Positions 1-60,367 of a stretch of DNA of 64,000 nucleotides are shown piece after piece. The notes below the pieces were generated by a model. It searched no databases and was not told the DNA's origin. It saw nothing but the letters and a program-made list of their open reading frames with translations. Each line of letters starts with the position of its first letter. Position 1 is the stretch's first letter. The stretch is from Acidimicrobiia bacterium (GTDB lineage Bacteria; Actinomycetota; Acidimicrobiia; Spongiisociales; UBA11373), in contig JACRIT010000085.1 in assembly GCA_016215655.1 (NCBI GenBank), forward strand, positions 39,007-103,006. Reading direction: 5' to 3'. A program made the translations under genes and the position numbers.

Positions 1-1710
1 AATGGAGGATGTGGGTCCCGGTGTGGCTCTTGCGAATGCGTTCCCGACGACCGGCGTCGACCGACAGCATCGCCCGCTGGCCGACGGCGATCTTCCCGGA
101 TTCGATGGAGCCCTTGTGGCCGTGGAGACCGGCCACCGGCAACTGGGTATCCGTGATGCGGACGGTCCCGGTCTCCGTCGTCGCGCTCCCGGTATCGCCG
201 ATCTGACCACCGGACTCCCCATAGAACGTGGTTCCGGCGAAGAACACCTCGACCTCCGCTCCCGCAGGAGCCTCGCGCACGAGCTCCCCGTCGCGGATGA
301 TGGCGAGCACTTCGGCGTCGAGATCGAGTTGCTCGTAGCCGAGGAACGGGGTGGCACCGTGGGCGTCGAGGATCGACCGATACAACGGCGAGCCCTCGGC
401 TGCGCCGGGCTTGGCACGAGCCGCTCGCCCTCGCTCGCGTTGTGCTGCCATCTCGGCATCGAAGCCGTCCCGATCGACGGTCAACCCGCGCTCGGCGGCG
501 ATCTCTTCGGTCAACTCCACCGGAAACCCGAAGGTATCGTGCAGCTTGAACGCGGTCGGGCCGGCGAGGACACCGCCGGCGTCCATGCCCTCGAGTTCCG
601 AGGCGAGCAGGGTGTGCCCGGATTCGAGGGTGCGGCGGAATCGCAGCTCCTCGCGCTCGGCCATCTCGACGATGCCATCGCGGCCCGACCGCAGCGCGGG
701 ATAGCCGGGCGACATCACCTCGATGGTGGCATCCACCAGGTACGGCGTCACCGGGCGCTCCGCGCCGAGCTGCCAGGCATGTCGCACCGCCCGGCGCAGC
801 AGTCGCCGCAGGATGTAGCCGCGGCCTTCGTTCGAAGGCACCACGCCATCGGCGATGAGGAATGTCAGCGCCCGGCCGTGGTCGGCGAGGATGCGGAGGC
901 TGACGTCACCTGCCGCGGACGTGCCGAACGCCACCCCGGTGGCCGCCTCACCCGCGGCGAGCACGGGGTGCAGGAGATCGGTGGCGAACACGTTGTCGAC
1001 GCCCTGGGTGAGCACCGCCACCCGCTCCAACCCCGACCCGGTGTCGATCGACTTGGCCGGAAGATCGCCCACGACGTGATAGGGGACGTCCTGCACGTAC
1101 TGCATGAAGACCAGGTTCCAGAACTCCATGAACCGCTCTTCGTCGGCCACGGGTCCGCCGTCGACCCCGAACTCCGGTCCGCGGTCGTAGAAGAGCTCGG
1201 AGCAGGGACCCGCCGGGCCCGCCACCCCCATCTGCCAGAAGTTGTCCCGGTCGCGCCGCTGCACCCGGTTGGCCGGCACACCCACCTTGTCGATCCAGAT
1301 CTCCGCCGCGTCATCGTCGCTGTGGTGCACGGTGAACCACAGTCGTTCGGGGTCGAAGCCGAGGACCTCGGTGGAGAACTCGTATGCCCAGGGAATCGCC
1401 CGTTCCTTGAAGTAGTCGCCGAAGGAGAAGTTCCCCAGCATCTCGAAGAACGAGAGGTGCCGCGCCGTGGTGCCGACGATGTCGATGTCCACGGTGCGGA
1501 TGCACTTCTGCGACGTCGTGGCCCGCGGGTACGGGGCGGGCTCGTCGCCGAGGAGGTAGGGCTTGAAGGGCACCATCCCCGCCACGGTGAGCAGCAGGGT
1601 CGGGTCCACGGGGATCAGCGACGCCGACGGCACGACGGTATGGGCACGCGCCGCGAAGAACTCGAGGTAGGCCTTGCGGATCTCGGCGCCGCCGATGGGA
1701 TGGCTCGACA
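1..1710 (-). CDS. alaS: alanine--tRNA ligase, N-terminal ~570 aa (3-prime end beyond window start)
   Basis: Manual minus-strand translation from ATG (revcomp cat at 1708-1710): MSSHPIGGAEIRKAYLEFFAARAHTVVPSASLIPVDPTLLLTVAGMVPFKPY...TSQKCIRTVDIDIVGTTARHLSFFEMLGNFSFGDYFKERAIPWAYEF..., which are class II AlaRS catalytic-core motifs. Absent from the ORF track because no stop occurs inside the window. The long plus-strand ORF 2..2209 is its antisense. Confidence 0.85.
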
Positions 1711-1751
1711 TCGAGCGGAGAGTACCGGAGTCGGGACTCACCGCCCCCCGA

Positions 1752-3077
1752 TCAGCGCCGGCGACCCATCCGGCGATCGATCTCGGCGAGACGCTCGGCG
1801 AGAGCCGCTTCGGCACCGGTGGTGCCCGGACGGAAGAGCACCCGGTCTCGGGCGGCGTCCGGAAGGTACTGCTGCGGCGCGATGCCGTCGGGATGATCGT
1901 GGGGATACACGTATCCCACTCCGTGGCCGAGCTTCTCGGCGCCGCGGTAGCCCGTGGAGCGCAGGTGGGGAGGCACGACCGCAGCCGGAGTCTCGGCCAC
2001 CGCGGCCGAGGCTGCCGCCATGGTGCGCCCTATGGTGTTCGACTTCGGCGCCGTGGCCAGATAGAGGGTGGCGTGGTAGAGGGCGTACCCGGCCTCGGGG
2101 AGCCCGACGAACTGGAGGGCCTGCGAGGCCGCCACCGCCACCTGGAGACCCCGGCTGTCGCCGAGCCCGACGTCCTCGGAGGCGAGGATCACGAGGCGTC
2201 GGGCGATGAACTCGGGGTCCTCACCGGCGGCGAGCATCACCTGGAGCCAGTAGGCGGCGGCATCGGGATCCGATCCCCGCACGCTCTTGATGAACGCCGA
2301 GATCACGTCGAAGTGCTGGTCACCTGCCCGGTCGTAGCGGATGATGCGGCGCTGCAGCGCTTCCTCGACCGCGGGGACGTCGACCACGTCCGATCCGCGA
2401 CCGGCGGCGATGAGCGCGGCGACTTCGAGGGCGTTCAGCGCGAGACGGGCGTCGCCACCCGAGCGCTCTCCCAGCAGGGCGCGCGCCTCGGGGGTGATGC
2501 CGGGCGGCTCACCGATTCCTCGCTCGTCGGCAAAGGCGCGATCCACGAGCGCCTCGACCTCTGCGGGCAGAAGCGACTCGAGCCGGAACAGGGTGCTGCG
2601 CGAGATGAGCGGAGAGTTCACCTCGAAGAAGGGATTCTCGGTGGTGGCGCCCACCAGGATCACGATCCCGGTTTCGACTCCGGGGAGCAGGGCATCCTGC
2701 TGCGCCTTCGAGAACCGGTGGATCTCGTCGAGGAAGAGGACGGTGCGACGCTCGTCCTGCTCCAGCCGTTGGGTTGCCGCGGCGAGGACGTCGCGCACGT
2801 CCTTCACCCCGGCACTCGTGGCCGAGAGCGATGCAAAGGCCGCCTGGCTCGCCGAGGCCACCAGACCGGCCAGGGTGGTCTTGCCGGTCCCGGGCGGCCC
2901 CCACAGGATCATCGACACGGGCCGGCCGGCTCGCACCATCTCCCCAAAGGCCGCTCCCGGAGCGAGGAGGTGGCGCTGGCCCACGACCTCATCGAGGGTG
3001 CGAGGGCGCAGGCGGGCGGCGAGTGGTTCGGCGGACCGGCGATGGGCTGCGCGCTCTCCGGAGAACAGGTCGTCCAT
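1752..3077 (-). CDS. rarA: replication-associated recombination protein A (AAA+ ATPase)
   Basis: 441 aa; Walker A ILWGPPGTGKTTLA, VLFLDEIHRF, and the C-terminal MgsA/RarA helical domain (YDRAGDQHFDVISAFIKSVRGSDPDAA). Immediately upstream of alaS, as in other actinobacteria. Confidence 0.9.
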   Translation of the reverse strand: MDDLFSGERAAHRRSAEPLAARLRPRTLDEVVGQRHLLAPGAAFGEMVRAGRPVSMILWGPPGTGKTTLAGLVASASQAAFASLSATSAGVKDVRDVLAAATQRLEQDERRTVLFLDEIHRFSKAQQDALLPGVETGIVILVGATTENPFFEVNSPLISRSTLFRLESLLPAEVEALVDRAFADERGIGEPPGITPEARALLGERSGGDARLALNALEVAALIAAGRGSDVVDVPAVEEALQRRIIRYDRAGDQHFDVISAFIKSVRGSDPDAAAYWLQVMLAAGEDPEFIARRLVILASEDVGLGDSRGLQVAVAASQALQFVGLPEAGYALYHATLYLATAPKSNTIGRTMAAASAAVAETPAAVVPPHLRSTGYRGAEKLGHGVGYVYPHDHPDGIAPQQYLPDAARDRVLFRPGTTGAEAALAERLAEIDRRMGRRR

Positions 3078-4863
3078 CAGGTTGGGGTCGGCTCCCCCGC
3101 CAGGGACTCGCGCACGTCGGGGCGGAGGTCGATGCCGAGCTCCTGGAGCTGGAACTCGTCGACGAGACTCGGCGAGTCGGTCATGGGGTCGTAGCCGGTC
3201 TGGGTCTTGGGAAACGGCATGACCTCACGAATGTTCGGCTCGTTCTGCAGCACCATGACGAATCGATCGAGGCCGACGGCGAAGCCGGCGTGAGGCGGGG
3301 TGCCATAGCGCAGCGCCCGCATGAACCAGCCGAAGCGCGACTCGGCCTCCCGGTCGGAGATGCCGAGCACCGAGAAGACCTCGCGCTGCACCCGGGGATC
3401 GTGGATCCGCTCGCTTCCCGAACCCAGCTCGACCCCGTTGACGACGAGGTCATAGGCGCGAGACAGGGCGTGCTCGGGGTCGTCGCGCATCTCCTCCACT
3501 CGGTACGGGGCCGTGAACGGGTGGTGTTCCGGAGCGAGGCTGCCGTCTTCGCCCACCGAGAACACCGGGAAGTCGATCACCCAGAGGAACTCCAGGCGAT
3601 CATGGCCGGTGGGGCGCCCCAGGTCGATCCGCAGGGCCCCGAGGACCGTCCGGGTCACCTTCGGCCGATCCGCCACCACGAGCAGCAGATCGCCCCGCCC
3701 GGCGCCGAGCGCCCGCGTCACCGCCGCCAACTCCTCGGGGGTGAGGTGCTTGGCGACCGGCGAACGCACCGATCCGTCGGCCTCGACCACCATCCAGACG
3801 AGGCCCTTGGCCCCGAGGCCCTTGGCGCGCTCGACGAACCCGTCGAGTACCGACCGCGACACCTCGCGGGCTCCGGCATTGATGCCGGCGACGATCCCCC
3901 CGGAAGCGAGGGCCCCGGCGAACATCTGGAATCCGGTGCCGGCGAAGGCCTCGCCCAGGTCGACGATCTCCATGCCGAAGCGCAGGTCGGGCTTGTCCGT
4001 GCCAAAGCGCCGCATCGCCTCGGCGTGGGTCATCCGGGGGAAGGGCGTCGTCAGTTCCACACCGCGCAGCTCCCGGGTGACGGCCACGATCACCGGCTCG
4101 AGTGCGGCGAACACCCCCTCGCGATCCCAGAACGAGCCTTCGATGTCCAACTGGGTGAACTCGATCTGACGATCCGACCGAAAATCCTCGTCGCGGTAGC
4201 ACCGAGCGATCTGGTAGTAGCGCTCCACACCCCCGACCATGAGCAGCTGCTTGAAGAGCTGCGGCGACTGCGGCAGGGCGTAGAACGAGCCCTGGCGGAG
4301 CCGGCTCGGCACCAGGACATCGCGGGCACCTTCGGGTGTGGACTTCACCAGAGTCGGCGTGTCCACCTCCAAGAAGCCCTGGGCGAGCATCGTCGTCCGC
4401 ATCGCCCCGATCGCCTTCGAGCGTGCCACGAGATTGGCGGCCATGCGGGGACGGCGCAGGTCGAGATAGCGGTACTCGAGGCGGCGGTTCTCGTCGACGT
4501 CCGCACGGTCGTCGATGCGGAACGGCAGCGGATCCGACGGCGACAGCACCATCACCTCGGCCGCGGCGACCTCGACCGCGCCACTGGGGAGTTCCGGGTT
4601 CACCGTGCCCGGCGGCCGCTGTCGTACGAGACCACCCACGGCGATGCAGAACTCGTCGCGCAGTTCCCTGCCCAGCTCGGCGGCGGCCGGGTTCAGCACC
4701 GGGTCCACCACCACCTGCACGATTCCCGAAGCGTCACGGAGGTCGACGAACAGCACGCCGCCGTGGTCGCGGATCGTGGCCACCCAGCCGGCCAACCGGA
4801 CCTCGCGTCCGGCGTCGGACTCGCGCAACTCCCCGGCTCGCGCCGTCCTCAACGGTGCAGCCA
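3077..4863 (-). CDS. aspS: aspartate--tRNA ligase
   Basis: ORF 3077..4942; GWVATIRDHGGVLFVDLRD anticodon-binding OB motif, class II core, GGSERIHDP. Likely GTG start at 4863 (VAAPLRTARAGELR...), since the upstream 26 codons are non-conserved. Its stop overlaps the rarA ATG (TGATG). Confidence 0.9.
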
Positions 4864-6072
4864 CGCCACGGCCTCCTCGATGTCCATCGTCACTTCCTCG
4901 CCTGTAGCCATCGACTTCACCCGCACCTCGCCACGCTCCCACTCGTCACCGATGACGGCGACGGCGGCAGCACCACTGCGGTCTGCCGCCTTGAATTGCG
5001 ACTTCAACGACCGATCGCCGCCCGCCCAGTCCACTCGCAGGCCCTCGGCCCGCAGTCGCCGCACCCAACTCGAGGCGACATCCTCGCGTGCCGCGCCGGC
5101 GACGGCGACGAAGACGTCGAGCCGGGGCGATTCGAGATCGGGCATGGCGGCCACGATGCGGTCACAACCCATCGCCACCCCGACTCCCGGCACCGGGAGA
5201 CGGCTCCCGATGAGTTCGCCGAGCGGGTCGTAGCGCCCTCCGCCGCCGAGCGACGACTGCGCGGCCTCGAAGGCCGGGGAGAACACCTCGAACACGGTCC
5301 GGTTGTAGTAGTCCAGGCCCCGTACCAGCCGGGGAGCGATCTCGTAGCCGATGCCCGCCGCATCCAGCCCGGAGCGGACCGCGGCGAAGTGCGCCGCGGT
5401 CTCGGCACCGAGATGATCGAGCGGAACGGGAGCCGCCGCCACGACGTCTTTGTCCACCTTGGAATCGAGCACTCGCAGCGGGTTGTCATCCATGCGCCGC
5501 CGCGAATCCGGCGAAAGCTCGTTGGCGACACCATGGAGGAAGTCGCGCAGGAGATCGCGGTAGGTGGCGCGATCCGAGGCGTCACCGATCGAGTTGAGGT
5601 GCACGGTGATGCCGGGGACCCCGGCCTCGGCGAGCAGCCGATGCGACATCTCGATGACCTCGATGTCGGCGCGGGGACCGGGCTCTCCGAGATACTCCAG
5701 GTCGACCTGGTGGAACTGCCGGCGGCGGCCCTTCTGCGGCTGCTCGTAGCGGAACTGCGGTCCGGACGCGGCCACCTTCATCACCCCGGTGCCGCCGGCC
5801 TCGACATAGGCGCGCACGATCCCGGCGGTGAACTCGGGCCGGAGGGTCACCGAGCGCCCCCCGCGGTCCTCGAAGGTGTACATCTGCTTCTGGACGACCT
5901 CGGTGTCCGCGCCGACACCGCGGGCGAAGAGCTCCGTGGCCTCGAGCACCGGCATGAGCACGAGGTCGTACCCGTAGCGCGCCGCGAGGTCGTCGAAGCC
6001 GCGCAGCAGCCTCCGCCACCGGGCAGATTCCGGAGGCAGGATGTCGTCGGTGCCCTTGAGCCGAGGGATCAC
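4849..6072 (-). CDS. hisS: histidine--tRNA ligase
   Basis: Conserved HisRS sequence from VIPRLKGTDDILPPES onward (class II motifs, RPEFTAGIVRAYVE, GGGRYD). GTG start at 6072 overlaps the stop of the upstream MBL hydrolase as GTGA (translational coupling). The ORF-track N-terminal extension to 6432 overlaps the MBL gene and is not coding for HisS. Confidence 0.9.
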   Translation of the reverse strand: MIPRLKGTDDILPPESARWRRLLRGFDDLAARYGYDLVLMPVLEATELFARGVGADTEVVQKQMYTFEDRGGRSVTLRPEFTAGIVRAYVEAGGTGVMKVAASGPQFRYEQPQKGRRRQFHQVDLEYLGEPGPRADIEVIEMSHRLLAEAGVPGITVHLNSIGDASDRATYRDLLRDFLHGVANELSPDSRRRMDDNPLRVLDSKVDKDVVAAAPVPLDHLGAETAAHFAAVRSGLDAAGIGYEIAPRLVRGLDYYNRTVFEVFSPAFEAAQSSLGGGGRYDPLGELIGSRLPVPGVGVAMGCDRIVAAMPDLESPRLDVFVAVAGAAREDVASSWVRRLRAEGLRVDWAGGDRSLKSQFKAADRSGAAAVAVIGDEWERGEVRVKSMATGEEVTMDIEEAVAWLHR

Positions 6073-6719
6073 GTGCGAAAGGTCTCGAGGAACGGGTTGG
6101 TCTCGAGCTCCCGGGCCAGGGTAGTGGCCGGACCGTGGCCGGGCAGCACCGCGGTGGCCGGGGGCAGCGTGAGCACCCGCTCCCCCATGCTGCGCATGAG
6201 CGCATCGAAATCGCCACCGGGAAGATCCGTGCGGCCGATGGATCCGGCGAACAGTTGGTCCCCACTGAAGAGCACGCCCTCGGCGGCGACGTGGAAGCAG
6301 CAGTGCCCCGGGGTATGGCCGGGGGTGTGGATCACCGAGATGGCGAAGCCGGCGAGGTCGAGCACCTGACCGTGCCACAGCCGCTCCCACCGCTGCGGGG
6401 CGGCGAAGTCCCCCGGCGGCACCATCCCCCACAGCAGGCGCAACTGCGCCGCGGGATCCAGGGCGAGCCAGTCATCATCGGGATGGAGGTATGCCGTGAG
6501 CGCATACCGCTGAGAGACCGCTCCCGCCCCCCCGATGTGATCGGCATGGCCGTGGGTGGCGAGGAGGGCCACCGGAGCGAGGTCGTGGCGGTCGAGGAGC
6601 TCGGCGACCCCGGCGGCGTCAGGAGGGGCATCGACGACGACGGCCGCAGAGCCCTGATGGGCGGCGAACACCCAGGTGTTGGTATCCGCAAGCCACAGGC
6701 CGGCGCCGTCGAGGAGCAC
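6069..6719 (-). CDS. MBL-fold metallo-hydrolase (glyoxalase II-like)
   Basis: 216 aa with HGHADHIGG metal-binding motif, TPGHTPGH and a C-terminal GHG; same position as the glyoxalase-II-like gene next to hisS in mycobacteria. Confidence 0.85.
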   Translation of the reverse strand: MLLDGAGLWLADTNTWVFAAHQGSAAVVVDAPPDAAGVAELLDRHDLAPVALLATHGHADHIGGAGAVSQRYALTAYLHPDDDWLALDPAAQLRLLWGMVPPGDFAAPQRWERLWHGQVLDLAGFAISVIHTPGHTPGHCCFHVAAEGVLFSGDQLFAGSIGRTDLPGGDFDALMRSMGERVLTLPPATAVLPGHGPATTLARELETNPFLETFRT

Positions 6720-6810
6720 GGCCGGAGGCTAGGTCAGGGACACGCGCCCGGAATCGCCGGCATCTGCGGTGGCCCCGTCCGCCGCCATCCGGCGTCTCCG
6801 CACGGCAGCC

Positions 6811-8181
6811 CTAGAGCTCGTCCCACCCCACCATGACCTCGACGGTCCGGGTTCCGACGAACGGTGTGGACAACTCGCCCGAGTTGCTCACGGTTGGATT
6901 GCCGCTGACAAAGGAGACATGGATCGAGCTGGTCGTCGCGGAGTCGCACGCCTCCTCGGCAAGGAGCGACGCCTCGGTGAGCGACGGGTTGCCCGAAACA
7001 CTCACCTGCTGGTGGGCAGCGAAGATGCCCGAGGCGTGCATGCCGCCGCTCAGGTTGAGATCCTTGCCGGCCGCCACGACGAGATTGCTCCCCCCGACAT
7101 GGGGGACGATCGTGGGGCTCCCCGAGATCGACACATCGCCGCCGACGGCGGCGGTGCAGTCCCCGCGAGCCTCCGCGATCATCGTCACCTGCCATGGATC
7201 GATGGACGAGCCAGGGTTCTTGGCAACCACGGCCGAGCCCTCGAAGAAGTAGAAGACTCCATCCACGGGGAGGTCGCTGTCGTAGGCCCATCTGGCGCCG
7301 TCCTTGGCGTCACAGCATCCGAGGAACTTCCACCCGAGCAGGGTCGTCGAGGCATCTCCGATCACCGACCCGGTGCATGGGCGATTCGCCGCGGTTCGCC
7401 CCATCGAGGGATGAGCCGGCCCGGCCCTGACCTTCCCATCGGGACACATGTCGAACTGGCTTCGGTCCCACAACGACCGCGGAGCCACGACCGGTATCTC
7501 GACGGGACTCTGGTTGCCGGGGGCGGCACATTCGGCACCATCGACGACCGATCCGGAGATCCTCGCCCCTCCTGAAGCGGAGACACACCCGGCAACGGAG
7601 ACCGAGCCCGAGGCCTCGAGGAATCCGTTGGCATGGATGCCGACCTTGCGGCCCGACGTGACCGCCGGATTGCCATTGAGCCCGAGGTCGCCACCCGACA
7701 GCATGGCATAGGTGGCAAACCAGCCTCCGGGCACCTGCCGGGTGCCGAGTTCGGCGCGCACGATCCGGACGCGTCGCTCTGCGGCGTCGCGGCTCGGCGC
7801 ATATCCGACCGCATACACGACGGAGACATTCACCGGCCGGATCACGACATACTCGCCCTGGGGCGCCACCGAAAGCCGCGTTCCCGTCACCGCCTCGGCG
7901 AGAGCCAGCACCCACGCTCGTTCATCGGTCCGCGTCGCGAAGCCCGGAGCGACCTCACCGGTGGTGAAGCTCGGATCCATCTGGAGTGCGAGCAGCCCCT
8001 CATCGAGCCCGGACTCGGCCACATGGAGCGCCTGCTCGTGGTCCGCCTCGAGGGCCACCTGGACCACCTGACGCGCGGCGCGAACGGTGAGCGCGGTGGC
8101 CACCGTCACCAGCGCCATACCGAGGAACATGACCATCACCAGGGCTGCCCCGCGCTCTTCGGTGTGCAGTGCTCGTGTCAT
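6811..8181 (-). CDS. TadE/TadG-like pseudopilin (minor pilin-like, beta-helical repeats)
   Basis: Start MTRALHTEERG|AALVMVMFLGMALVTVATALTV: short charged leader ending in G, followed by a hydrophobic helix (prepilin-type/TadE-like). 456 aa rich in SG/VSG repeats and Cys pairs, typical of Tad minor pilins or tip adhesins. Confidence 0.55.
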   Translation of the reverse strand: MTRALHTEERGAALVMVMFLGMALVTVATALTVRAARQVVQVALEADHEQALHVAESGLDEGLLALQMDPSFTTGEVAPGFATRTDERAWVLALAEAVTGTRLSVAPQGEYVVIRPVNVSVVYAVGYAPSRDAAERRVRIVRAELGTRQVPGGWFATYAMLSGGDLGLNGNPAVTSGRKVGIHANGFLEASGSVSVAGCVSASGGARISGSVVDGAECAAPGNQSPVEIPVVAPRSLWDRSQFDMCPDGKVRAGPAHPSMGRTAANRPCTGSVIGDASTTLLGWKFLGCCDAKDGARWAYDSDLPVDGVFYFFEGSAVVAKNPGSSIDPWQVTMIAEARGDCTAAVGGDVSISGSPTIVPHVGGSNLVVAAGKDLNLSGGMHASGIFAAHQQVSVSGNPSLTEASLLAEEACDSATTSSIHVSFVSGNPTVSNSGELSTPFVGTRTVEVMVGWDEL

Positions 8182-8185
8182 TCCA

Positions 8186-8704
8186 TCACCCCCACAGGTT
8201 CCGCAGTGTGATCTGAGATCGAACCCGCCGCTCGGTACCCCCGACGACGACGGCAAACTCCAGCGTGACCGCGGTCACCGCGCTCGGCTCGGCGGCGTCA
8301 TAGAAGAAGGTGGTGCCGGGCAGCGCCAGATCGGTTGCCGGGTGCTCGGTGATGCCGCCTGCGGAACGCTCCAGCATCCCGTCCACCACGCGCCACGTGA
8401 CGAGCTCCGCAGTTCCCACGACGCCGTCACGATTGTCATCGAGCCAGATCGTGAAGCTGTCCGGCTGGGCCACCGTGACCTCGATGGCCCGTCTGATGTC
8501 GCGCCCGATCAGGTTCTCGAGATCACGAATCTCCGAGGATGACACGTCATCGCGCTGGTGGAGCCGATCCGTCCGGGTCACGCTCGAGAACCAGGTGGTC
8601 ATCAAGGCGCCGAGGATCGCGATCCCCATCATGACCACCCCCAATTCGACGAGGGAGGCGCCCCGCTCATCCGGTCGCATCCGGGACATCCTGTTCACCC
8701 GCAT
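8186..8704 (-). CDS. TadE-like pseudopilin (prepilin-type N-terminal domain protein)
   Basis: N-terminus MRVNRMSRMRPDERG|ASLVELGVVMMGIAILGALM has Gly at -1 and Glu at +5 (prepilin cleavage/methylation signature). GGAG lies 6 nt upstream of the ATG at 8704; the start overlaps the upstream stop (ATGCGGGTGA). Alternative ATGs at 8689 and 8680. Confidence 0.55.
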   Translation of the reverse strand: MRVNRMSRMRPDERGASLVELGVVMMGIAILGALMTTWFSSVTRTDRLHQRDDVSSSEIRDLENLIGRDIRRAIEVTVAQPDSFTIWLDDNRDGVVGTAELVTWRVVDGMLERSAGGITEHPATDLALPGTTFFYDAAEPSAVTAVTLEFAVVVGGTERRVRSQITLRNLWG

Positions 8705-10020
8705 GACGACTCCACGGACGGCACGAAGAACCGGTTCACCATGGCTGACGTCGTCAGGCCCGACGGGTACAGCACCGAGGATCCACCCGAGAAGAGCACA
8801 TCGCCGGTCCCGTTCGGTCCGCCGGCGATGAGCGAGCCGATCCACGATGACGTGCCGCTCAGGACGATGCCGCCGTAGGGAGCAAAGGCCACTCCCTGAA
8901 CGGTGCCCGCGCTCCCCCCACTCAGCTTGAGGGACTGAGCGGTGGTTCCGAACGAGACCAATCCGCCTTCGGTGAACTGCTCGACCCGGTACTGGCCCCC
9001 TCCGGAGAACTCGATGAGGGTGTCGGCTACCAGCGGGCTGGCCTGCGAGGTGACGACCGCCCCACGCACCTTGATCGCGTTCGTGGCGTACACCGGCCCC
9101 GCCCCGTTGATGGTGACCGCGCCCTCGAACTCGATGGTTCCGTTCACGTAGATCGGTGCCGTGATCGTCTGGTTGCTGAAACGAACCGTTCCGGAGTACA
9201 CCGCACCGGCTTGGGCCGACGATCGGAGCTCGGCCCTCCACGCTTCGACGTCCGTGGCGGGCGGCATCGACACCACCACTCCGGCGTTCTGCTCGATGAT
9301 CCCCGCCACGTTCGCGGCCGTCGCCGTCGCCGTACCCCCCACCCGGATGTCGCCGTCGACCCGGGCTGTGCCGTCCTTGAAGTCGCCGTTCGCCAGGGCA
9401 GACGCGGTGTGCTGGCCGGCGCTCGATGACGCGGTGAAGGCACCACCGCTCATGGTCACATCGTCCATGGCGATCACCGCGGCATTGGGGAAGAAACCCG
9501 TGCCGACACGATCACCCGCGGCCGCAACCCGAGAGATGGTCGTTGACGCCTCATAGCTCCGTACCGCTCCCTCGAGGTTCCACTCGACGAAGACGACCAC
9601 CCGCCGCACGCCCGAGGACACGTCGGTGACATAGGTCCAGGTGGCGAAGGATGTGCCGGCCGTCTGCGCGCTCGCCCGTGCTGCCACCACCCCGGTGGGA
9701 CATACCACGAGCGGCTCGTCGGCGGCGATCCCGAAGGGCGCCCCGGCCAGGGCCGTGCCACTGCCGGTGAGATGCGGAGCTGCGGTGTCCACCGAGTACA
9801 GGGCGAGCTCCTCCCAACGGAGGGCCCGCGCCGCCTCGATCCGATCCGTCGCCAGGACGGTGGCCGCCTCCTGCATGCGGCTGTCCCGCGAGGACCGCAG
9901 GGCACCCCCGAGCACCGCGGTGAACATCACGAAACACAACGCGCTCAACATGAGCCCGGCGAGGAGTTCCACCACGGTGAACCCGCGATCGTCGCGCCGA
10001 AGCCGCCGCCAATGCCTCAT
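8695..10020 (-). CDS. type IV pilin-like / pseudopilin (prepilin-type N-terminal cleavage-methylation domain)
   Basis: N-terminus MRHWRRLRRDDRG|FTVVELLAGLMLSALCFVMF is a canonical class III signal (G at -1, F at +1, E at +5). 442 aa with Gly/Thr/Ser/Ala-rich beta-rich repeats (GTIEFEGAVTINGAG...). Confidence 0.6.
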   Translation of the reverse strand: MRHWRRLRRDDRGFTVVELLAGLMLSALCFVMFTAVLGGALRSSRDSRMQEAATVLATDRIEAARALRWEELALYSVDTAAPHLTGSGTALAGAPFGIAADEPLVVCPTGVVAARASAQTAGTSFATWTYVTDVSSGVRRVVVFVEWNLEGAVRSYEASTTISRVAAAGDRVGTGFFPNAAVIAMDDVTMSGGAFTASSSAGQHTASALANGDFKDGTARVDGDIRVGGTATATAANVAGIIEQNAGVVVSMPPATDVEAWRAELRSSAQAGAVYSGTVRFSNQTITAPIYVNGTIEFEGAVTINGAGPVYATNAIKVRGAVVTSQASPLVADTLIEFSGGGQYRVEQFTEGGLVSFGTTAQSLKLSGGSAGTVQGVAFAPYGGIVLSGTSSWIGSLIAGGPNGTGDVLFSGGSSVLYPSGLTTSAMVNRFFVPSVESSCG

Positions 10021-10112
10021 GCAGAGTTTGTCGGCAGCCGCCACTGCCGAGTTGAGGTACCGCCGCGCTCACACCCCGGTCCGACTGATCAAAGTCATGA
10101 TCCGCCCGGGGA

Positions 10113-12311
10113 CTAGTCCCTCTCACCCCCGCCGGGGAGCAGCCGGTAGGCGTCGTAGACCCCCTCGACCCCCCGCATCTCCTCAATGGCACGGTCGAGG
10201 GTGGCGATGTCGGACAACTCGATCTCGAACTTCAGCACGGCCACGCGATCCCGGCTCGTCACCGTCGACGACGAGACGATGTTGGCGCCGAGATCCGAAA
10301 GGGCCACGGTGACGTCGCGCAGCAACCGGGGCCGATCGAGGGCCTCTGCCTGGACGGCGGCACGGAAGGTGCCGGCGTGCTCGGCAGACCAGCTCACCTC
10401 GATCATGCGTTCCGATCGATCGACGAGCGATTCGACGTTCGTGCAGTCGGCGCGATGGATCGACACCCCCCGGCCGACGGTCACGTACCCCACGATGGCA
10501 TCTCCCGGAAGGGGGGTGCAGCAATGGGCGATCCGCACCAGCATGTCGTCCATGCCCTCCACCACGATCCCACCCGAGGGGCTGCCGCGCACCGGGAAGG
10601 CGGAAGGCGATGGCTCCTCGTCCTCCTGGCGCTCCGCCTCGGGGTGGACGAGGCGCACGAGGCGGTGCACCACCGTCTGCGGATTCGTGTTCCCGTCCCC
10701 GATGCCGACGAACATCGACTCGATGTCGCGGAACCCGAGCGAGTCGGCCACCTCGGCGAGCAACTCGTCGCGCTTGGCGGCGCCCAGGCCGAGACCCTCG
10801 CGGCGCAGCAGTTTGGCGATCTCCTCCCGGCCGTCGACGAGCGACTGCTCCCGCCGCTCCTGGGTGAACCAATGCCGGATCTTGGCGGCGGCACGCGAGG
10901 TACGGACGAACGACAGCCAGTCGCGCGACGGGGCGTCGGACTTCGAGGTGATCACCTCGACGATGTCACCCGACTCGAGACGGGTCGACAGTGGCACGAG
11001 GCGGCCGTTGACCCGCGCCCCGGTGCAGCGGTGCCCCACCTCGGTGTGCACGGCGTAGGCGAAGTCGATCGGGGTGGCCCCCCGCGGCAACACCTTCACG
11101 TGGCCGTTCGGCGTGAGGGCAAAGACCTCGTCGTCGTAGAGGTCGAGCTTGAGGCCGGCGAGGAACTCGGCCGGTGACTCGTAGTCATCGGCTCCATCGG
11201 CGAGATCCCCCGGCATCGTGAGATCCTCGGCGGTCGTTCCGCCCTCCTTGTACCTCCAGTGCGCCGCAATGCCCTGTTCGGCACGGTCGTGCATCTCCTT
11301 GGTGCGTATCTGCACCTCGAGCGGCTTGCGATCGGGACCGAGCACCGTCGTGTGCAGGCTCTGGTACAGATTGAACTTGGGCATCGCGATGTAGTCCTTG
11401 AACCTCCCCTGCACCGGAGGCCAGGTGGTGTGGATGATGCCGAGGGCTGCGTAGCAATCGGCGACCTCCTTCGTGATGATGCGGATGCCGAGGAGGTCAT
11501 GGATCTCGTCGAAGGTGCGCCCGCCATCGACCATCTTGCGATAGATGGAGTAGATGTGCTTGGGGCGCCCCGTGACTTCGGCGGTGATCCCGGCATCCAC
11601 GAGCATCTGCTCCACTCCCGTGATGACCGAGCGGAGAAAGGCGTCCCGCTCCGGAGCGCGCGCCCGCATGAGCTCCACGATCTCGGCGTAGCGACGGGGA
11701 TGGAGAATGGCGAAGCAGCGGTCCTCCATCTCGTGCTTGATCTCCTGGACACCGAGCCGGTGGGCAAGCGGCGCGTAGACCTCGAGGGTCTCGGCGGCGA
11801 TGCGCTGCTGCTTCTCCGGGGAAAGGGGGAAGATGGTGCGGACGTTGTGCAGGCGATCGGCGAGTTTGATGAGCAGGACGCGCACGTCGCGCGCCATGGC
11901 GATGACCATCTTGCGGATCGTCGCCGCTTGCTGGTCCTCCCGGCTCGAGTACCGCACCCGATCGAGCTTCGTGACCCCATCGATCAGATACGCAACGGTG
12001 GCGCCAAACTCTCGCTCCACGTCGACGAGCGTGATGCGGGTGTCCTCCACCGTGTCGTGGAGGATCGCCGCGGCCACGGTTTCCGCATCCAATCCGTAGT
12101 CCGCCAGCATCGACGCCACCGCCAGGGGATGAGTGATGTACGGCTCGCCGGTCTTGCGGAACTGCCCCTCGTGTGCCGCGGCGGCGATGTCGTACGCCCG
12201 GTGGATGAGGGTGTCCGACTCGTGGGGGTGATGGCGCCGGAACCGATCCAGCACGGGACCCAGCTCGGAGATGACCGCGTCCTCCGGCCGCGAGCCGGCC
12301 TCAATCGACAC
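10113..12311 (-). CDS. relA: bifunctional (p)ppGpp synthetase/hydrolase
   Basis: 732 aa with HD domain (HDTVEDT), RelA/SpoT synthetase domain, TGS and ACT domains. Confidence 0.9.
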   Translation of the reverse strand: MSIEAGSRPEDAVISELGPVLDRFRRHHPHESDTLIHRAYDIAAAAHEGQFRKTGEPYITHPLAVASMLADYGLDAETVAAAILHDTVEDTRITLVDVEREFGATVAYLIDGVTKLDRVRYSSREDQQAATIRKMVIAMARDVRVLLIKLADRLHNVRTIFPLSPEKQQRIAAETLEVYAPLAHRLGVQEIKHEMEDRCFAILHPRRYAEIVELMRARAPERDAFLRSVITGVEQMLVDAGITAEVTGRPKHIYSIYRKMVDGGRTFDEIHDLLGIRIITKEVADCYAALGIIHTTWPPVQGRFKDYIAMPKFNLYQSLHTTVLGPDRKPLEVQIRTKEMHDRAEQGIAAHWRYKEGGTTAEDLTMPGDLADGADDYESPAEFLAGLKLDLYDDEVFALTPNGHVKVLPRGATPIDFAYAVHTEVGHRCTGARVNGRLVPLSTRLESGDIVEVITSKSDAPSRDWLSFVRTSRAAAKIRHWFTQERREQSLVDGREEIAKLLRREGLGLGAAKRDELLAEVADSLGFRDIESMFVGIGDGNTNPQTVVHRLVRLVHPEAERQEDEEPSPSAFPVRGSPSGGIVVEGMDDMLVRIAHCCTPLPGDAIVGYVTVGRGVSIHRADCTNVESLVDRSERMIEVSWSAEHAGTFRAAVQAEALDRPRLLRDVTVALSDLGANIVSSSTVTSRDRVAVLKFEIELSDIATLDRAIEEMRGVEGVYDAYRLLPGGGERD

Positions 12312-12816
12312 GAATCACCGCCTCGAACGGCACCGTGATGCGCGCGCGCCCGCCGAGAAACCCCAGTTCGACGAGCACCCCGAAGCCCAGCACCTCGGCG
12401 CCCAGGTCCCGGATGAGGGAGATCGTGGCTGCTCCCGTCCCTCCGGTGGCGAGGACGTCGTCGATGATGACCACCCGGTCGCCAGGGCCCACGGCGTCGG
12501 CATGCGCCTCGAGCCGATCGGTGCCGTACTCGAGCTCGTAGCTCTTCGCCACCGTGTTCCACGGCAGCTTCCCGGGCTTGCGCACCGGAACGAACCCGGC
12601 ATGGATGCGAGCCGCCACGGGACTGCCGACGATGAATCCGCGCGACTCGATGCCCACCACGTGGCTGACCCCTCTCCCCCGCCACGGCTTGGCCATGGCC
12701 TCGAGGACGCGGTCGAAGGCGCCGGCATCACCGAGGAGCGGGGTGATGTCCTTGAAGATGATGCCCGGCCTGGGGAAGTCGGGTACGTCACGAATCAACG
12801 CGCGGAGATCATCCAT
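12301..12816 (-). CDS. apt: adenine phosphoribosyltransferase
   Basis: 171 aa; PRPP-binding motif VVIIDDVLATGGT, typical Apt length, directly upstream of relA. Confidence 0.9.
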   Translation of the reverse strand: MDDLRALIRDVPDFPRPGIIFKDITPLLGDAGAFDRVLEAMAKPWRGRGVSHVVGIESRGFIVGSPVAARIHAGFVPVRKPGKLPWNTVAKSYELEYGTDRLEAHADAVGPGDRVVIIDDVLATGGTGAATISLIRDLGAEVLGFGVLVELGFLGGRARITVPFEAVIRVD

Positions 12817-12885
12817 CCGGCGATTGTACGGTCACCCTGCGACCGCTGGCGGCGGCTTCGGGCACCGAGGCTCCGACGCTCGCAC

Positions 12886-13938
12886 TCAGCGGCGCGAGCC
12901 CTTCTGGCGCTTGCGCGGCGGCCGGGGCACCGCTCCGGTCGCCACGGCCGTGACTGCCGACGGAGTGCTGTCGTGGGGAGCGAAGTCCTCTCCGGTGCCG
13001 CGGCGTTCCAGCCGGCGGCGCACCTTGATCCAGTGGTCTTCGCGCTCCTTCCACATCCCCACGAGGGGGGCGGCGAGGAAGATCGACGAATACATGCTCG
13101 TCGCCACCCCGACGAAGAGGGCCATGGCGAATTCACGCAGCGTCGTGGCGCCGAGCAGGAACGAGCCGACGAAGAGAAGGCTCCCGATCGGAAGCAGGGA
13201 GACGAGCGAGGTGTTGATGGAGCGCATGAGCACCTCGTTCATCGACATGTTCACGATCGCCGCATAGGTGTGGCGCTCACCCCGGTCACGGACGTTCTCC
13301 TGCATCTTGTCGAACACGACCACGGTGTCATACAGCGAGTAGCCGAGAATGGTGAGGATGGCGATCACCGTCGCCGGGGTGACCTCGAGACCGGTGAGTG
13401 CGTAGATCCCGGATGTGAAGATGAGGTCGTGCATGAGGGCGAAGATGGCCGCGCCCGCCATCTTCCACTCGAGTCGCCACGCCATATAGAGAGCGATCAC
13501 GATGAGGAACACGATGAGGGCGCGCACCGCCGACTTCGTGACCTGGCTGCCAAAGGTCGGTCCCACGGACTGCCTGCTGGCATCGGCCGAATCCACTCCG
13601 AGCAGCTCGGCCAGGTCCTCCACCAGAGCATCTTCGTCGCCCGGCTCGAGCTGGTTGGTCTGCACCCGGATTCCGGACCCACCCACCTCCTGAACCTTGG
13701 CGCTTCCGACGCCGGCGGCGTCAACCCGCTCCCGCACCGCGGCGACCGAGATGCCATTCGGATTGGGGAACTCGACGAGGGTTCCCCCGGTGAAGTCGAC
13801 ACTCAAGTCGAGACGCAGGACGATCAGGGCGAACAGGGACACCGCGATGATCACCCCGGACAGGGCGAACCACCGCCGCCGGTTTCCGTAGAAATCGAAT
13901 CGGGTGTCGCCGTGGTAGAGGTCGCGCCACAGGCTCAT
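12886..13938 (-). CDS. secF: protein translocase subunit SecF
   Basis: Starts MSLWRDLYHGDTRFDFYG; 6-TM SecF topology. ATG overlaps the secD stop (ATGA). Confidence 0.9.
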   Translation of the reverse strand: MSLWRDLYHGDTRFDFYGNRRRWFALSGVIIAVSLFALIVLRLDLSVDFTGGTLVEFPNPNGISVAAVRERVDAAGVGSAKVQEVGGSGIRVQTNQLEPGDEDALVEDLAELLGVDSADASRQSVGPTFGSQVTKSAVRALIVFLIVIALYMAWRLEWKMAGAAIFALMHDLIFTSGIYALTGLEVTPATVIAILTILGYSLYDTVVVFDKMQENVRDRGERHTYAAIVNMSMNEVLMRSINTSLVSLLPIGSLLFVGSFLLGATTLREFAMALFVGVATSMYSSIFLAAPLVGMWKEREDHWIKVRRRLERRGTGEDFAPHDSTPSAVTAVATGAVPRPPRKRQKGSRR

Positions 13939-15608
13939 TTCGTGGCCTCCCGGGGACGGCCCGTGGCGCCGCGGATCGAGAATCGGCCGCCGTCTCCGAA
14001 TCGGGTGTGCGCGAGCAACCACACCGCCGGCCGCGTGAAGAAGACTGCAACGAGCACGTCACAGACCGTGGTGATGAGCAGAGCCAATGCAAAGCCCTTC
14101 ACCGATCCCACGGCCAAGAAGAACAGAAGGATGGCACCCGTGATCGACACGGTGTCGGCGGTGAGGATCGTCCGGATGGCCTGTTTGAAGGAGAAGTCGA
14201 CCGCCGACGCCAGCGATCGTCCGCGGTGGACCTCTTCCTTGATCCGCTCGTAGTAGACGACGTACGAGTCGGCGCTCACCCCGACCCCGACGATGATCCC
14301 GGCCACGCCCGCCAGGGTAAGGGTGACCCCCTGCCATGCGCCGAGCGCGGAGAAGATCACCAGGGTGAGTGCCCCGGACACCCCCAGCCCGACGATGTTG
14401 AGCAGTCCCAACGCCCGGTAGTAGGCCACCATGGCCATCGCCACGAGGGCCAACCCGATGAACCCGGCGACGAGACCAGCGCGCAGCGAGTCCTCACCGA
14501 GGGTGGCCGAGACCGACTCGACGGACGACTGCTCGAAGGCCACCGGCAGGGCGCCGTACTTGAGCACGACGGCGAGGTTGCTCGCCTCGGACTCCTGGTC
14601 GGCGGCATTGCCGAGGGTGATCACGGCGGAGCCGCCGGTGATGCCGGTCGTCGGCGAGACCTCGGCCGCCACCGCCGGCGCCGACTGCACGATGCCGTCG
14701 AGCACGATGGCGAACTGGCGCCGGACGTCACCGAGCGGGAATCCCGCCAACTCGGCGGTCACCTCGGCGAACTTCTCGCCTCCGGACTCGGTGAAATCCA
14801 GGGCGACCAGCCACTGGCCGGTGAGCGAGCCGGTGGTCGTGCCCTGGAACTGCGCCTGGGCGCCTTCGAGGTCCGAACCGAGCACCCGGGCGGGACCGGT
14901 GTGATAGACGATGCCATCGGGGGTGGAGAGGAACGCCTCCAGGGTCGGCACCGGCACCACGGTGATCCCCGTGTCGGGGTCGAGGCAGCCCGGCTGGTCG
15001 ACGACATCGCAGCGGGTCACCCCCTCGGGCATGACCACGCCCTCCCACGGATCGACCGGCACCGTCGTGGTCGTCGTGGTCTCGCCCCCGGCGCCCGTGG
15101 TGGTCGTGGTCGCCGCAGTCGTCGAGGTGGTGGCGCCGGCGACGGTGGTGGTCGTGGTGGAGCTGAGGCCGAATGTGGTCGTGGTCGTGGAACCGTCGGT
15201 CGTGCCGTCATCGACGGGAGCCGTGAAGAAGATCGGGCTGATGCCCAGCACCGGGCTGACGGCGAGCACCGGACGGAACTCGAGCTGCCCGGTGGTGCCC
15301 ACGGCGGACAGGGCCCGGTCTCGATCGGTCACCCCGGGAAGCTGCACCTCCACCGTGCGATCGCCGACGACGGCGATCTCCGGCTCCTGGACGTCACCGA
15401 GCGCCTCGATGCGCCGCCGCATGATGCTCACGGCCTGATCGATCACCGCGGGGTCGGTCCCCTCGGGAGCCTCGAGGACGACGGCGAAGCCGCCCTGGAG
15501 ATCGAGACCGAGCCGGGGCGTGGTGTCGGTCACCTGGGTCAACACGAGAAGGCCGATGGTGACGACCAGCGTCGTCAGGAGTGTGATCAGGGCACCACGC
15601 CGCGACAT
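13935..15608 (-). CDS. secD: protein translocase subunit SecD
   Basis: Starts MSRRGALITLLTTLVV; large periplasmic domain with a Thr-rich linker followed by the C-terminal SecD/SecF 6-TM domain. Confidence 0.9.
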   Translation of the reverse strand: MSRRGALITLLTTLVVTIGLLVLTQVTDTTPRLGLDLQGGFAVVLEAPEGTDPAVIDQAVSIMRRRIEALGDVQEPEIAVVGDRTVEVQLPGVTDRDRALSAVGTTGQLEFRPVLAVSPVLGISPIFFTAPVDDGTTDGSTTTTTFGLSSTTTTTVAGATTSTTAATTTTTGAGGETTTTTTVPVDPWEGVVMPEGVTRCDVVDQPGCLDPDTGITVVPVPTLEAFLSTPDGIVYHTGPARVLGSDLEGAQAQFQGTTTGSLTGQWLVALDFTESGGEKFAEVTAELAGFPLGDVRRQFAIVLDGIVQSAPAVAAEVSPTTGITGGSAVITLGNAADQESEASNLAVVLKYGALPVAFEQSSVESVSATLGEDSLRAGLVAGFIGLALVAMAMVAYYRALGLLNIVGLGVSGALTLVIFSALGAWQGVTLTLAGVAGIIVGVGVSADSYVVYYERIKEEVHRGRSLASAVDFSFKQAIRTILTADTVSITGAILLFFLAVGSVKGFALALLITTVCDVLVAVFFTRPAVWLLAHTRFGDGGRFSIRGATGRPREATK

Positions 15609-15962: not shown

Positions 15963-18088
<2,126 letters not shown>

Positions 18089-18110
18089 CGTGGGGAGAGT
18101 ATGGGCCGTC

Positions 18111-18248
18111 CGCAATTCGCAATTCGTCAGAGCGTGAGAGCACCGTGCCTCACCGCCCACGAGTCCGCTGCGACTTCGCCGCGGCTGGCGCATTGCGAAC
18201 TGCGAATTGCGAATTGCGGGCCACTGCCAATTGCCAATCGCCAATCAC
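18111..18248. repeat. intergenic structured repeat: 16-bp perfect inverted repeat built from tandem CGCAATT heptamers, followed by a GCCAAT x3 tandem
   Basis: CGCAATTCGCAATTCG at 18111-18126 and its exact reverse complement CGAATTGCGAATTGCG at 18203-18218, 76 nt apart. A GCGAAcT/GCGAATT x3 tandem and CCAATTGCCAATCGCCAATC at 18221-18248 follow. The region lies between the ruvB stop (18254) and the queA start (18088). Confidence 0.6.
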
Positions 18249-18253
18249 CCGAC

Positions 18254-47090: not shown

Positions 47091-47201
47091 GTCCCTCCTC
47101 GGACGAAGCTGGCGCCCCCAACCCCGAGGATGGTACGCGACCCGCCACCTGCACGCGGACACCCCGGTCCGCTATCTTCTCGCCCCGAACGAGGAGGCGG
47201 G

Positions 47202-60135: not shown

Positions 60136-60367
60136 TGAGCGGCTCCTCTCGGCGGCTCCCGGAACGCATTGCGCGCCGAACCCGCAACGGGCTCGACGCG
60201 CACTCGGCATGACCTCGTCACGGACGACTCGGTCGATTCAAGACTGCGAACAGGGGGTCGGATTCGGTACGGGTTTCAGGATTTGGTGCGCGTTGGGACA
60301 CCATCGTACTCCGCCCCCGGCCAAAGGGCCCGGCACCCTTTTCCTCCCCGGAGGGGTCCCAAACACG

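Follow-up and report, generated by a model that had tools for sequence, protein, structure and literature searches.

Core minor pilins are familiar as GspI-GspJ-GspK in type II secretion systems (T2SS) and as PilV-PilW-PilX(-FimU) in type IVa pili (T4aP), and the absence of Glu at position +5 is the rule among GspK/PilX-type caps. A close known counterpart of the gene trio considered here is found in Thermus thermophilus, where ComZ, a competence minor pilin accompanied by PilA1-PilA3, binds DNA and is required for transformation (PDB 6QVI; PMC6561018). Cyanobacterial genomes carry several alternative minor-pilin sets of the PilV/PilW/PilX and HpsA-D kinds, some of them encoded away from the machinery; one of two sets is dedicated to competence, and a beta-solenoid PilX has been proposed to act as a tip plug where there is no PilY1 (bioRxiv 10.64898/2026.02.12.705559). 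In the monoderm Streptococcus sanguinis, PilB and PilC each display a functional module grafted on a pilin domain (PMC8179133, PMC9934059).

We analyzed a 64-kb stretch of DNA from an uncultured member of the Acidimicrobiia (the window) in which three consecutive genes, called A, B and C, lie between relA and an MBL-hydrolase gene. The trio was previously unannotated; the kind of system is already known. With good confidence, the products can be taken as the core set of minor pilins in a type IVa-like pilus, with A PilV/GspI-like, B PilW/GspJ-like and C PilX/GspK/ComZ-like. They are most likely the 'starter and tip' subunits of a pilus, encoded apart from the pilus motor genes.

The gene trio and its predicted folds

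The three minus-strand reading frames of the original prediction stand, together with their starts and the sizes of B and C, and only the length of A is corrected from 442 aa (Table 1). Independent public gene calls on an identical contig give the same products (441/172/456 aa). Exact look-up placed the A and C proteins on a 5-kb Logan contig and nowhere else, and gave no record for B. The A stop and the B start overlap by 10 nt and a gap of 4 nt separates B from C.

Table 1. Features of the relA-hisS region, in window coordinates; assignments of A, B and C are probable
Feature	Coordinates	Strand	Description
relA	10113-12311	(-)	upstream of trio
relA-A intergenic spacer	10021..10112	(-)	92 nt
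Gene A	8695..10020	(-)	441 aa; PilV/GspI-like minor prepilin
Gene B	8186..8704	(-)	172 aa; small PilW/GspJ/HpsC-like minor prepilin
Gene C	6811..8181	(-)	456 aa; ComZ/PilX/GspK-like cap pilin
C-MBL intergenic spacer	6720..6810	(-)	91 nt
MBL-hydrolase	6069-6719	(-)	downstream of trio; hisS and aspS also downstream

Prepilin-type signals had been proposed for all three proteins, and both the leaders and their conservation bear this out. The canonical signal is that of A, where a basic leader of 13 aa, MRHWRRLRRDDRG, precedes FTVVELL and provides G-1, F+1 and E+5. In B (...DERG/ASLVEL, the slash following Gly-1) A+1 is combined with E+5, and C (...EERG/AALVMV) carries Met at +5 and lacks Glu there, as had been noted. 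At least 19 of the 21 residues after Gly-1 are hydrophobic or small in each protein. These motifs are not due to chance, because the same pattern, E5 in A, E5 in B and none in C, is repeated in over 25 homologous trios; Glu at +5 is absent from all the C-type N-termini tabulated across them. Purifying selection acts on A, B and C (dN/dS of about 0.2-0.3), including the G-1 and E+5 residues.

The predicted structure of C displays the prepilin fold, a long alpha1 helix (the N-terminal helix spans 62 residues) lying on an antiparallel beta-sheet of the GspK-like pilin type. An ice-binding-protein-like beta-solenoid is inserted ahead of the last strand, so that C shows the architecture of a cap, a GspK-like pilin domain with a large inserted domain, as does ComZ, whose solenoid likewise precedes the final strand. 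C also has six conserved cysteines. Among solved structures ComZ comes closest, with a sequence identity of about 12%; it was found by fold comparison only, and a C-family profile matched no PDB sequence, ComZ included. The original prediction that the large proteins are beta-helix-like holds for C in the structure model and only tentatively for A. In the latter, some 165 aa of pilin domain precede a C-terminal module (about 275 aa) that resembles DUF7305 weakly, is missing from most relatives and is likely a beta-solenoid. Its AF2 model, built from three sequences and of poor quality (pLDDT 60), displays a helix at 16-66, four strands and a solenoid-like region at 273-418; a fold search with this model gave no significant match. 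Alignment shows that the N-terminal domain is common to short (165-183 aa) and long forms of A, and the modules appended to it across the family are DUF7305-like, CarboxypepD_reg or Ig-like. Gene B encodes a conserved WxDxDxD...GE loop and, at the C-terminus, an LRN motif. Its family profile matched nine PDB sequences, all of them type IV pilins (best Geobacter PilA-N, E=9.6e-4).

The proposed mechanism follows from these architectures. Each of the three proteins would enter the membrane through its hydrophobic alpha1 helix and be cut after Gly-1 by a prepilin peptidase. They would then gather on the assembly platform as a small complex joined by the alpha1 helices; since it has no Glu+5 and bears a bulky beta-solenoid, C would sit on top as the cap, with A and B below it. 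The complex would prime the polymerization of a major pilin whose gene lies elsewhere and finish at the pilus tip, where the C solenoid and the additional C-terminal module of A may be exposed to bind a surface, a glycan or DNA.

If the ligand were DNA, the trio would constitute a competence (DNA-uptake) tip complex and not a tip for adhesion or motility in general; C would be the receptor that, like ComZ in Thermus, takes up DNA at the tip of a pilus or pseudopilus that is short and dynamic. This is a specialization of the core-minor-pilin assignment and not an exclusive alternative, and we regard it as possible but rather doubtful. The structural proximity of C to ComZ, together with the DNA binding of the latter and its requirement in transformation (PMC6561018), argues in its favor, as do weak matches of some A- and B-family members to the ComGE, ComGF and ComGD models and the precedent of the competence-dedicated set in cyanobacteria (bioRxiv 10.64898/2026.02.12.705559). 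However, C and ComZ share only 12% sequence identity, other PilX proteins and ice-binding or adhesin proteins use the solenoid fold for adhesion, and neither comEA, comEC nor dprA is adjacent to the trio. Tandem trios differing by Ig-like or CarboxypepD_reg modules look more like adhesin variation.

Genomic setting and assembly machinery

The flanking genes, relA on one side and MBL-hydrolase and hisS on the other, are those originally reported. Their interpretation has changed: the trio had been considered an insertion specific to the lineage and replacing ppiB, but one to three trios fill the relA-MBL slot in 15 or more related contigs of Acidimicrobiia, and ppiB was seen nowhere, including the nearer outgroups in which the slot is empty or holds dtd. 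Trios at the relA site are present in assemblies GCA_964511945.1, GCA_040878325.1 and GCA_033722675.1. Among the nearest relatives devoid of the trio, relA adjoins MBL directly in L010 and a dtd-like gene fills the slot in L018. A recent one-off insertion was also rejected, the often duplicated trio being the conserved occupant of this position across the clade. Synteny loci L010, L015, L018 and L020 were obtained from an AlaS-fragment scan of genome contigs, in which most of the matches listed were universal AlaS motifs, and a metagenome scan with a 19-sequence alignment gave 14 loci. All loci contain three genes per set, and no fourth adapter pilin of the FimU/GspH type was found beside the trio, which departs from a core of four subunits.

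The trio is orthologous to A-B-C sets with the same motif pattern that reside inside complete type IVa pilus clusters of two distant relatives, L007 and L008, the only two cases recovered; their middle gene is the homolog of B, with E of about 1e-5 to 1e-6. These clusters encode pilB/pilT/pilC, major pilins, pilM/N/O and a prepilin peptidase, and the in-cluster orthologs are flanked by genes for PilM, PilN, PilO, a PilT-like ATPase and N_methyl pilins, with no tad neighborhood. Co-occurrence of the trio with PilB/PilC/PilM/N/O, PilD and a major pilin was found in L007 and L008 and not in the window. There, tblastn with related-locus queries detected none of PilB/T/C/D/M/N/O or the major pilin in 64 kb at E<1e-4, and a scan of all ORF N-termini for G/xxxxE followed by a hydrophobic stretch recovered A and B only. 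The window is devoid of an ATPase, a platform protein, a major pilin and a prepilin peptidase, as first proposed. Nor are there pil genes within +/-10 kb of the trios in any relA-site contig examined. In relatives, the prepilin peptidase gene is located between aroE and aroC or directly after the trio; the best 120 of 720 matches of a PilD profile search all came from the L010 clade. In this Acidimicrobiia clade, the trio was probably separated from the machinery genes; it resides in the housekeeping relA-MBL-hisS block, often in tandem copies with different modules. The idea of an orphan minor-pilin module priming a pilus built elsewhere is retained for the minor pilins, with priming and tip role most likely, and the word orphan applies to the window only; the machinery would be encoded at another place in this genome.

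The same absence of machinery from 64 kb, the lack of linkage to pil genes at every relA site and the lone peptidase retained at the ancestral aroE-aroC position by L010, the closest trio-less relative, could also be read as signs of a relic or an autonomous surface module, in which the motor was lost and the trio persists as membrane-anchored adhesins or in another pilus-independent role. We consider this decidedly unlikely. Selection has kept all three proteins, down to the G-1 and E+5 residues of processing and assembly, and T4aP genes are reported from Acidimicrobiia (PMC12008989). Moreover, complete trios are co-inherited and tandem-duplicated, which argues for a three-part complex and therefore for a filament context that is still in use.

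The promoter/terminator scan of the locus revealed no intergenic signals: the relA-A spacer contains neither a sigma-70-like promoter nor an intrinsic terminator, and the C-MBL spacer contains no terminator. The C-MBL junction measures only 30-34 nt in L002, L091, L107 and L108, a distance compatible with read-through into MBL-hisS. Tip-pilin sets might be wired into a relA-(trio)n-MBL-hisS transcription unit, coupling the choice between an adhesive and a DNA-binding tip, or tip production as such, to the stringent response and amino-acid starvation, with tandem trios serving as an alternative-tip cassette for one machine; we view this scenario as unlikely.

Family assignment

None of the window proteins reaches a curated HMM threshold, and all family-level HMM matches correspond to minor pilins of type IVa pili, T2SS or Com systems. 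Against Pfam N_methyl (PF07963), whose gathering score is 21.2, window A falls short with 15.6 bits, and its orthologs in L007 (24.6), L093 (26.2) and L006 (22.6) pass; window B and C gave no match to this model. A is matched by the NCBIfam PilV model (E=1.2e-4), which recognizes 8/24 members of its family. Nine of the 24 match GFxxxE, HpsB and XpsI are found too, and GspH matches only 3/24. Among the 22 members of the B family, the NCBIfam matches are HpsC (four), GFxxxE (four) and ComGF (three). C scores 23 bits against NF037980 (GspK), far from the cut-off of 130 and over the N-terminal 61 residues only, and PilX_N (PF14341) matched 4/85 remote C members at E>=1e-4; sequence alone places C in neither family.

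The original prediction compared B to TadE and the large proteins to TadG or type IV tip adhesins. Tad loci are common across Actinomycetota, and they are reported from Acidimicrobiia (PMC12008989); B and C have G/A(S/A)LVE leaders with a superficial resemblance to the N-termini of TadE and TadG, so that the trio might be seen as Tad/Flp-type pseudopilins (TadE/TadF/TadG) that work with a tad locus at another site. This assignment is largely refuted already and very improbable. Neither PF07811 (TadE) nor PF13400 (Tad) matches A, B or C even at E<=1, A carries the canonical GFxxxE motif and C the GspK/ComZ fold. Ortholog trios reside in PilM/N/O/B/T/C clusters and not in tad clusters, adjoining PilM/N/O, PilT and an A24_N-containing PilD, none of which is known as part of Tad systems.

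Least probable of all, and rejected, is the view that the trio encodes ordinary proteins, secreted or located at the cell surface, whose leaders look pilin-like by coincidence and are Sec signal peptides removed by signal peptidase I: their scores under every curated HMM cut-off would permit it, but it is contradicted by the Gly-1/Glu+5 register kept across more than 25 trios, by orthologs above the N_methyl threshold, by the 62-residue helix and GspK-like fold of C and by T4P synteny in relatives.

Comparison with known minor-pilin systems

The core-minor-pilin assignment would provide a function for a sizeable protein family that lacks any annotation: clustered at 50% identity, the C-type cap pilin has about 3,300 representatives, with almost no Pfam coverage. 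It would extend the beta-solenoid PilX/ComZ cap replacing PilY1 from Thermus and cyanobacteria to Actinomycetota, and it implies that pilus presence is under-called in Acidimicrobiia metagenome-assembled genomes (MAGs) if the machinery locus alone is inspected. The interchangeable tip modules (short A, or A with a solenoid, an Ig-like or a CarboxypepD_reg module, in one to three trios) form a natural series useful for the study of pilus-tip diversification. The trio reveals no new kind of machine.

Compared with the ComZ system, the similarity of C is not visible at the sequence level, the trio genes are not beside a major pilin or the machinery, and the host is an actinobacterium; since the latter is presumed monoderm, there would be no secretin to pass through. 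With respect to GspI-GspJ-GspK and PilV-PilW-PilX(-FimU), the trio scores far under the cut-offs and lacks both a GspH/FimU-type adapter and PilY1, and the inserted domain is a beta-solenoid in C whereas it is alpha-helical in GspK. The grafting of a functional module on a pilin domain in a monoderm, as the present host is presumed to be, is shared with Streptococcus sanguinis PilB and PilC; the modules of these pilins (vWA, lectin) are unrelated to those of A and their genes lie inside the pil locus. The cyanobacterial sets belong to another phylum; the trio differs from them by its tandem arrangement within one housekeeping location (relA-hisS) and by the C-terminal module that A sometimes possesses. 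They resemble it in the beta-solenoid cap, the presence of several sets, the ability of sets to lie apart from the machinery genes and the matches of the A and B families to HpsB and HpsC.

The trio and its genomic setting

The adjoining genes A, B and C, located between relA and the MBL-fold hydrolase gene (MBL) beside hisS, probably encode the core minor pilins of a type IVa-like pilus: a PilV/GspI-like subunit (A), a PilW/GspJ-like subunit (B) and a cap resembling ComZ/PilX/GspK (C). The three consecutive minus-strand genes originally predicted are found both among the open reading frames and in public gene calls on an identical contig. Exact protein matches, with locus tags HZA58_09175 to HZA58_09185, assign the window to an uncultured Acidimicrobiia MAG; all public copies are labelled 'hypothetical protein'. 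A and B overlap by 10 nt at the A stop and B start, and the gap from B to C is 4 nt. The GC content of the window is ~68-70%, and its gene order alaS-rarA-aspS-hisS-MBL ... relA-apt-secF-secD-tgt-queA-ruvB is an actinobacterial housekeeping order. A signal scan found neither a sigma-70-like promoter nor an intrinsic terminator in the spacers flanking the trio, and two terminator-like matches fall within A. Since the C-MBL spacer measures only ~30 nt in some relatives, co-transcription of the trio with its neighbours is possible. Elsewhere in the window, a 550-aa protein has a signal peptide, an N-terminal domain containing Cys and then a long poly-Thr/Pro linker, with several transmembrane segments predicted in its C-terminal region, and reading of the translations alone places rny (RNase Y, KH and HD domains), recA and miaB consecutively.

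Coordinates of features in the window and in loci (L) or contigs of related genomes
Locus	Feature	Positions	Strand	Remark
Window	MBL	6069-6719	-	C-side flank of trio
Window	C-MBL spacer	6720-6810		91 nt
Window	C	6811-8181	-	456 aa
Window	B	8186-8704	-	172 aa
Window	W-x-D loop of B	8390-8440		residues ~87-103
Window	A	8695-10020	-	441 aa
Window	terminator-like matches	9943-9955, 9498-9511
Window	relA-A spacer	10021-10112		92 nt
Window	relA	10113-12311	-	A-side flank of trio
Window	550-aa protein	45522-47171	-
Window	miaB	57228-58859	-
Window	rny	58604-60217	-
Window	recA	60412-61572	-
L090	two complete tandem A-B-C trios, relA-MBL	8944-14009
L091	two complete tandem A-B-C trios, relA-MBL	8945-13991
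L093	two complete tandem A-B-C trios, relA-MBL	3675-10325		break in second C at ~9570-9650
L099	two complete tandem A-B-C trios, relA-MBL	6453-11962
L108	two complete tandem A-B-C trios, relA-MBL	1996-7063
L100	additional divergent trio	5007-8909
L094	additional divergent trio	489-4388
JGI 3300042731 contig	additional divergent trio			downstream of P0003
L018	dtd-like gene	5137-5517
L007	split pil genes, two major-pilin genes and PMT-family gene	1264-5080, 5056-6182
L010	lone A24 prepilin peptidase, aroE-aroC	16320-17105
L015	lone A24 prepilin peptidase, aroE-aroC	17843-18622
L020	lone A24 prepilin peptidase, aroE-aroC	16097-16894

Architecture of the C and A proteins

The AlphaFold2 model of C (51-sequence alignment, pLDDT 92.2) opens with an N-terminal helix of 62 residues, after which come a second, small helix and a beta-sheet at 103-156; a long stretch made up of beta structure only (160-432) leads to the last strand (437-455). 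This predicted profile agrees with the description of ComZ, a GspK-like pilin domain bearing, between its penultimate and last strands, a beta-solenoid most closely related to an ice-binding protein; ComZ was argued to fit nowhere but the pilus tip (PMC6561018). All cyanobacterial PilX homologs share this solenoid-bearing architecture; PilX lacks Glu5, and its solenoid has been proposed to stand in for PilY1 as a tip plug in cyanobacteria (bioRxiv 10.64898/2026.02.12.705559, 2026 preprint). A competence-specific role such as that of ComZ would be a specialisation of the minor-pilin reading and is conceivable, if on the doubtful side.

The A model is poor (pLDDT 60, built from three sequences only); it displays a helix (16-66), a sheet of four strands and a solenoid-like region (273-418) that is predicted better, and had no significant PDB match. 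An alignment delineates a pilin domain of ~165 aa common to A proteins, with which most relatives end (163-183 aa). An extra module of ~275 aa follows it in the window, L002, L006 and L093, where its DUF7305 score of 25.5-26.0 bits stays slightly below the threshold of 27; its place is taken by CarboxypepD_reg in L100 (above threshold) and by an Ig-like domain with a Thr-rich linker in L099. Judged from its sequence, A is a modular pilin, and its pilin domain with appended modules fits the 'modular pilin' concept developed for S. sanguinis (PMC8179133).

The trio among relatives

In a clade of Acidimicrobiia with RelA 64-76% and RarA 72-78% identical to the proteins of the window, the trio usually resides in the relA-MBL slot. 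A single trio is present there in the window, L002-L006, L105 and L107, and two in tandem in L090, L091, L093, L099 and L108, where the second C is 27-45% identical to window C; in L093 it is apparently split or frameshifted. Several shorter contigs also carry C directly upstream of MBL, and L092 has a trio in an unrelated context. L094 and L100 have an additional (third), divergent trio at this site, also present on the JGI 3300042731 contig; it consists of A' (548-556 aa, 551 aa in L094 and L100, with CarboxypepD_reg repeats plus a linker of poly-Thr), B' (~217 aa, GF(S/T)L(V/I)E) and C' (532-536 aa, G↓FAMMAV without E5, weakly matching an 'ice-binding-like adhesive' domain). In the closest trio-less species representative, L010 (RelA and AlaS each 61% identical to the window's), relA ends only 24 nt before MBL, and in a more distant Actinomycetota MAG, L018, the slot holds a D-tyrosyl-tRNA deacylase-like (dtd-like) gene with an SQFTL motif. 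The trio had been predicted to be inserted in place of ppiB, which in mycobacteria presumably lies between relA and MBL/hisS. Considering its distribution and the absence of ppiB from this site in every relative compared, gene order instead marks the trio as an old, clade-wide occupant of the slot. The use of alternative tip cassettes, expressed under coupling to the stringent response, is unlikely.

As predicted, the window is devoid of pilus machinery: tblastn searches of the 64 kb, for which PilB/T/C/D/M/N/O and major pilins of related loci served as queries, returned nothing beyond the trio. That the trio is a relic, or an autonomous module operating without machinery, is nevertheless quite improbable. 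Purifying selection acts on all three genes, with dN/dS values (approximate because dS is ~1) against the 69%-identical orthologs of L002 of 0.23 (A), 0.28 (B) and 0.22 (C); the neighbouring MBL gives 0.15. By synteny, pilD would lie a few kb past the left window edge: in L010, L015 and L020, Acidimicrobiia without a relA-site trio, an A24 peptidase gene lies 4.6-6 kb downstream of alaS, in the interval from aroE to aroC, where L007 and L008 carry their whole pil cluster. In M. tuberculosis, Rv2551c has a similar position. Free-living Acidimicrobiia belonging to order UBA5794 have been reported to carry the type IVa pilus genes pilABCEMOT (PMC12008989).

In two distant relatives, L007 and L008, a complete type IVa-like pilus cluster surrounds the trio. 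L007 (540-kb ENA contig; C 40% identical to window C) encodes, in order, T2SSE (PilB-/PilT-like) and T2SSF (PilC-like) fragments, two N_methyl pilins (125-126 aa), a PMT glycosyltransferase, the trio (524/185/452 aa), an HTH protein, PilM, a PilN-position product, PilO, aroC, aroK/B, aroQ, efp and nusB. In L008 (GCA_038256525.1; C 27% identical), the trio (549/200/486 aa) directly precedes the A24 prepilin peptidase, PilM, PilN, PilO and aro genes. The window proteins match their positional counterparts in L007 and L008 at 1e-83 and 1e-27 (C), ~1e-5 to 1e-6 (B) and ~1e-6 (N-terminal domain of A). Because these counterparts adjoin PilM/N/O and PilT, which are components of type IVa pili and not of Tad, and since A, B and C do not match TadE (PF07811) or Tad (PF13400) even at E<=1, the Tad-like identity first proposed was rejected as extremely improbable. 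The pilB, pilT and pilC genes of L007 are split into many short ORFs, which may be assembly indel errors and not real pseudogenes. Its two major-pilin genes are nearly identical, and the PMT-family gene that follows in divergent orientation could reflect pilin O-glycosylation.

The N-termini, correctly read in the original prediction down to the missing Glu+5 of C, are MRHWRRLRRDDRG↓FTVVELL in A, ...RPDERG↓ASLVEL in B and MTRALHTEERG↓AALVMV in C; a scan of the whole window recovered this kind of prepilin N-terminus in A and B only. They are invariant in more than 25 trios as G↓F(T/S)x(V/I)E, G↓x(S/T)(L/I)VE and G↓xAxxxV, the last never with Glu+5. The window proteins reach no curated HMM threshold, their matches being N_methyl (E=0.012), PilV (8e-4) and DUF7305 (0.08) for A, HpsC pseudopilin (0.07) for B and the GspK N-terminus (4.9e-5) for C. 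The Pfam N_methyl gathering score is exceeded by A orthologs in L007 (24.6 bits), L093 (26.2) and L006 (22.6). Pilin domains of the A family (n=24) match GFxxxE (9), PilV (8, best 3.5e-7), ComGE (7), HpsB (5) and XpsI, equivalent to GspI (4); B-family members (n=22) match HpsC (4), GFxxxE (4) and ComGF (3); 12 of 51 C-family members match GspK (best 6e-7), and 85 remote representatives only PilX_N (4), DUF4900 (3) and DUF7305 (1). All nine PDB sequences matched by the B profile are type IV pilins, and no recurrent non-pilin family emerged from the HMM and PDB-sequence searches with the three families. Ordinary signal peptides cleaved by signal peptidase I are barely credible. The B family also conserves a W-x-D-x-D-x-D-(x4-6)-G-E loop, similar in sequence to the Dx[DN]xD motif that binds calcium, and ends in an L-R-N that hardly varies.

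A word-seeded search identified 54 relatives of C at the 90% cluster level, and an exhaustive profile search at E<=1e-3 yielded 3,336 clusters (50% level; 1,016 at E<=1e-10), nearly all full-length (440-540 aa). Each C gene with recovered DNA is preceded by B-type and A-type genes in constant order.

Proposed role and known systems

As minor pilins, and by analogy with GspIJK, PilVWX and ComZ-PilA2, A, B and C would be cleaved at Gly-1, form a complex priming filament assembly and remain at the filament tip, where the C solenoid and the A module would be displayed, presumably to a ligand. The kind of system is thereby already known. New are the probable assignment to it of a large family that lacks annotation and for the most part Pfam coverage, its presence in Acidimicrobiia, and the unusual position of the trio, conserved and in many cases duplicated, in the relA-hisS housekeeping block, apart from the machinery.
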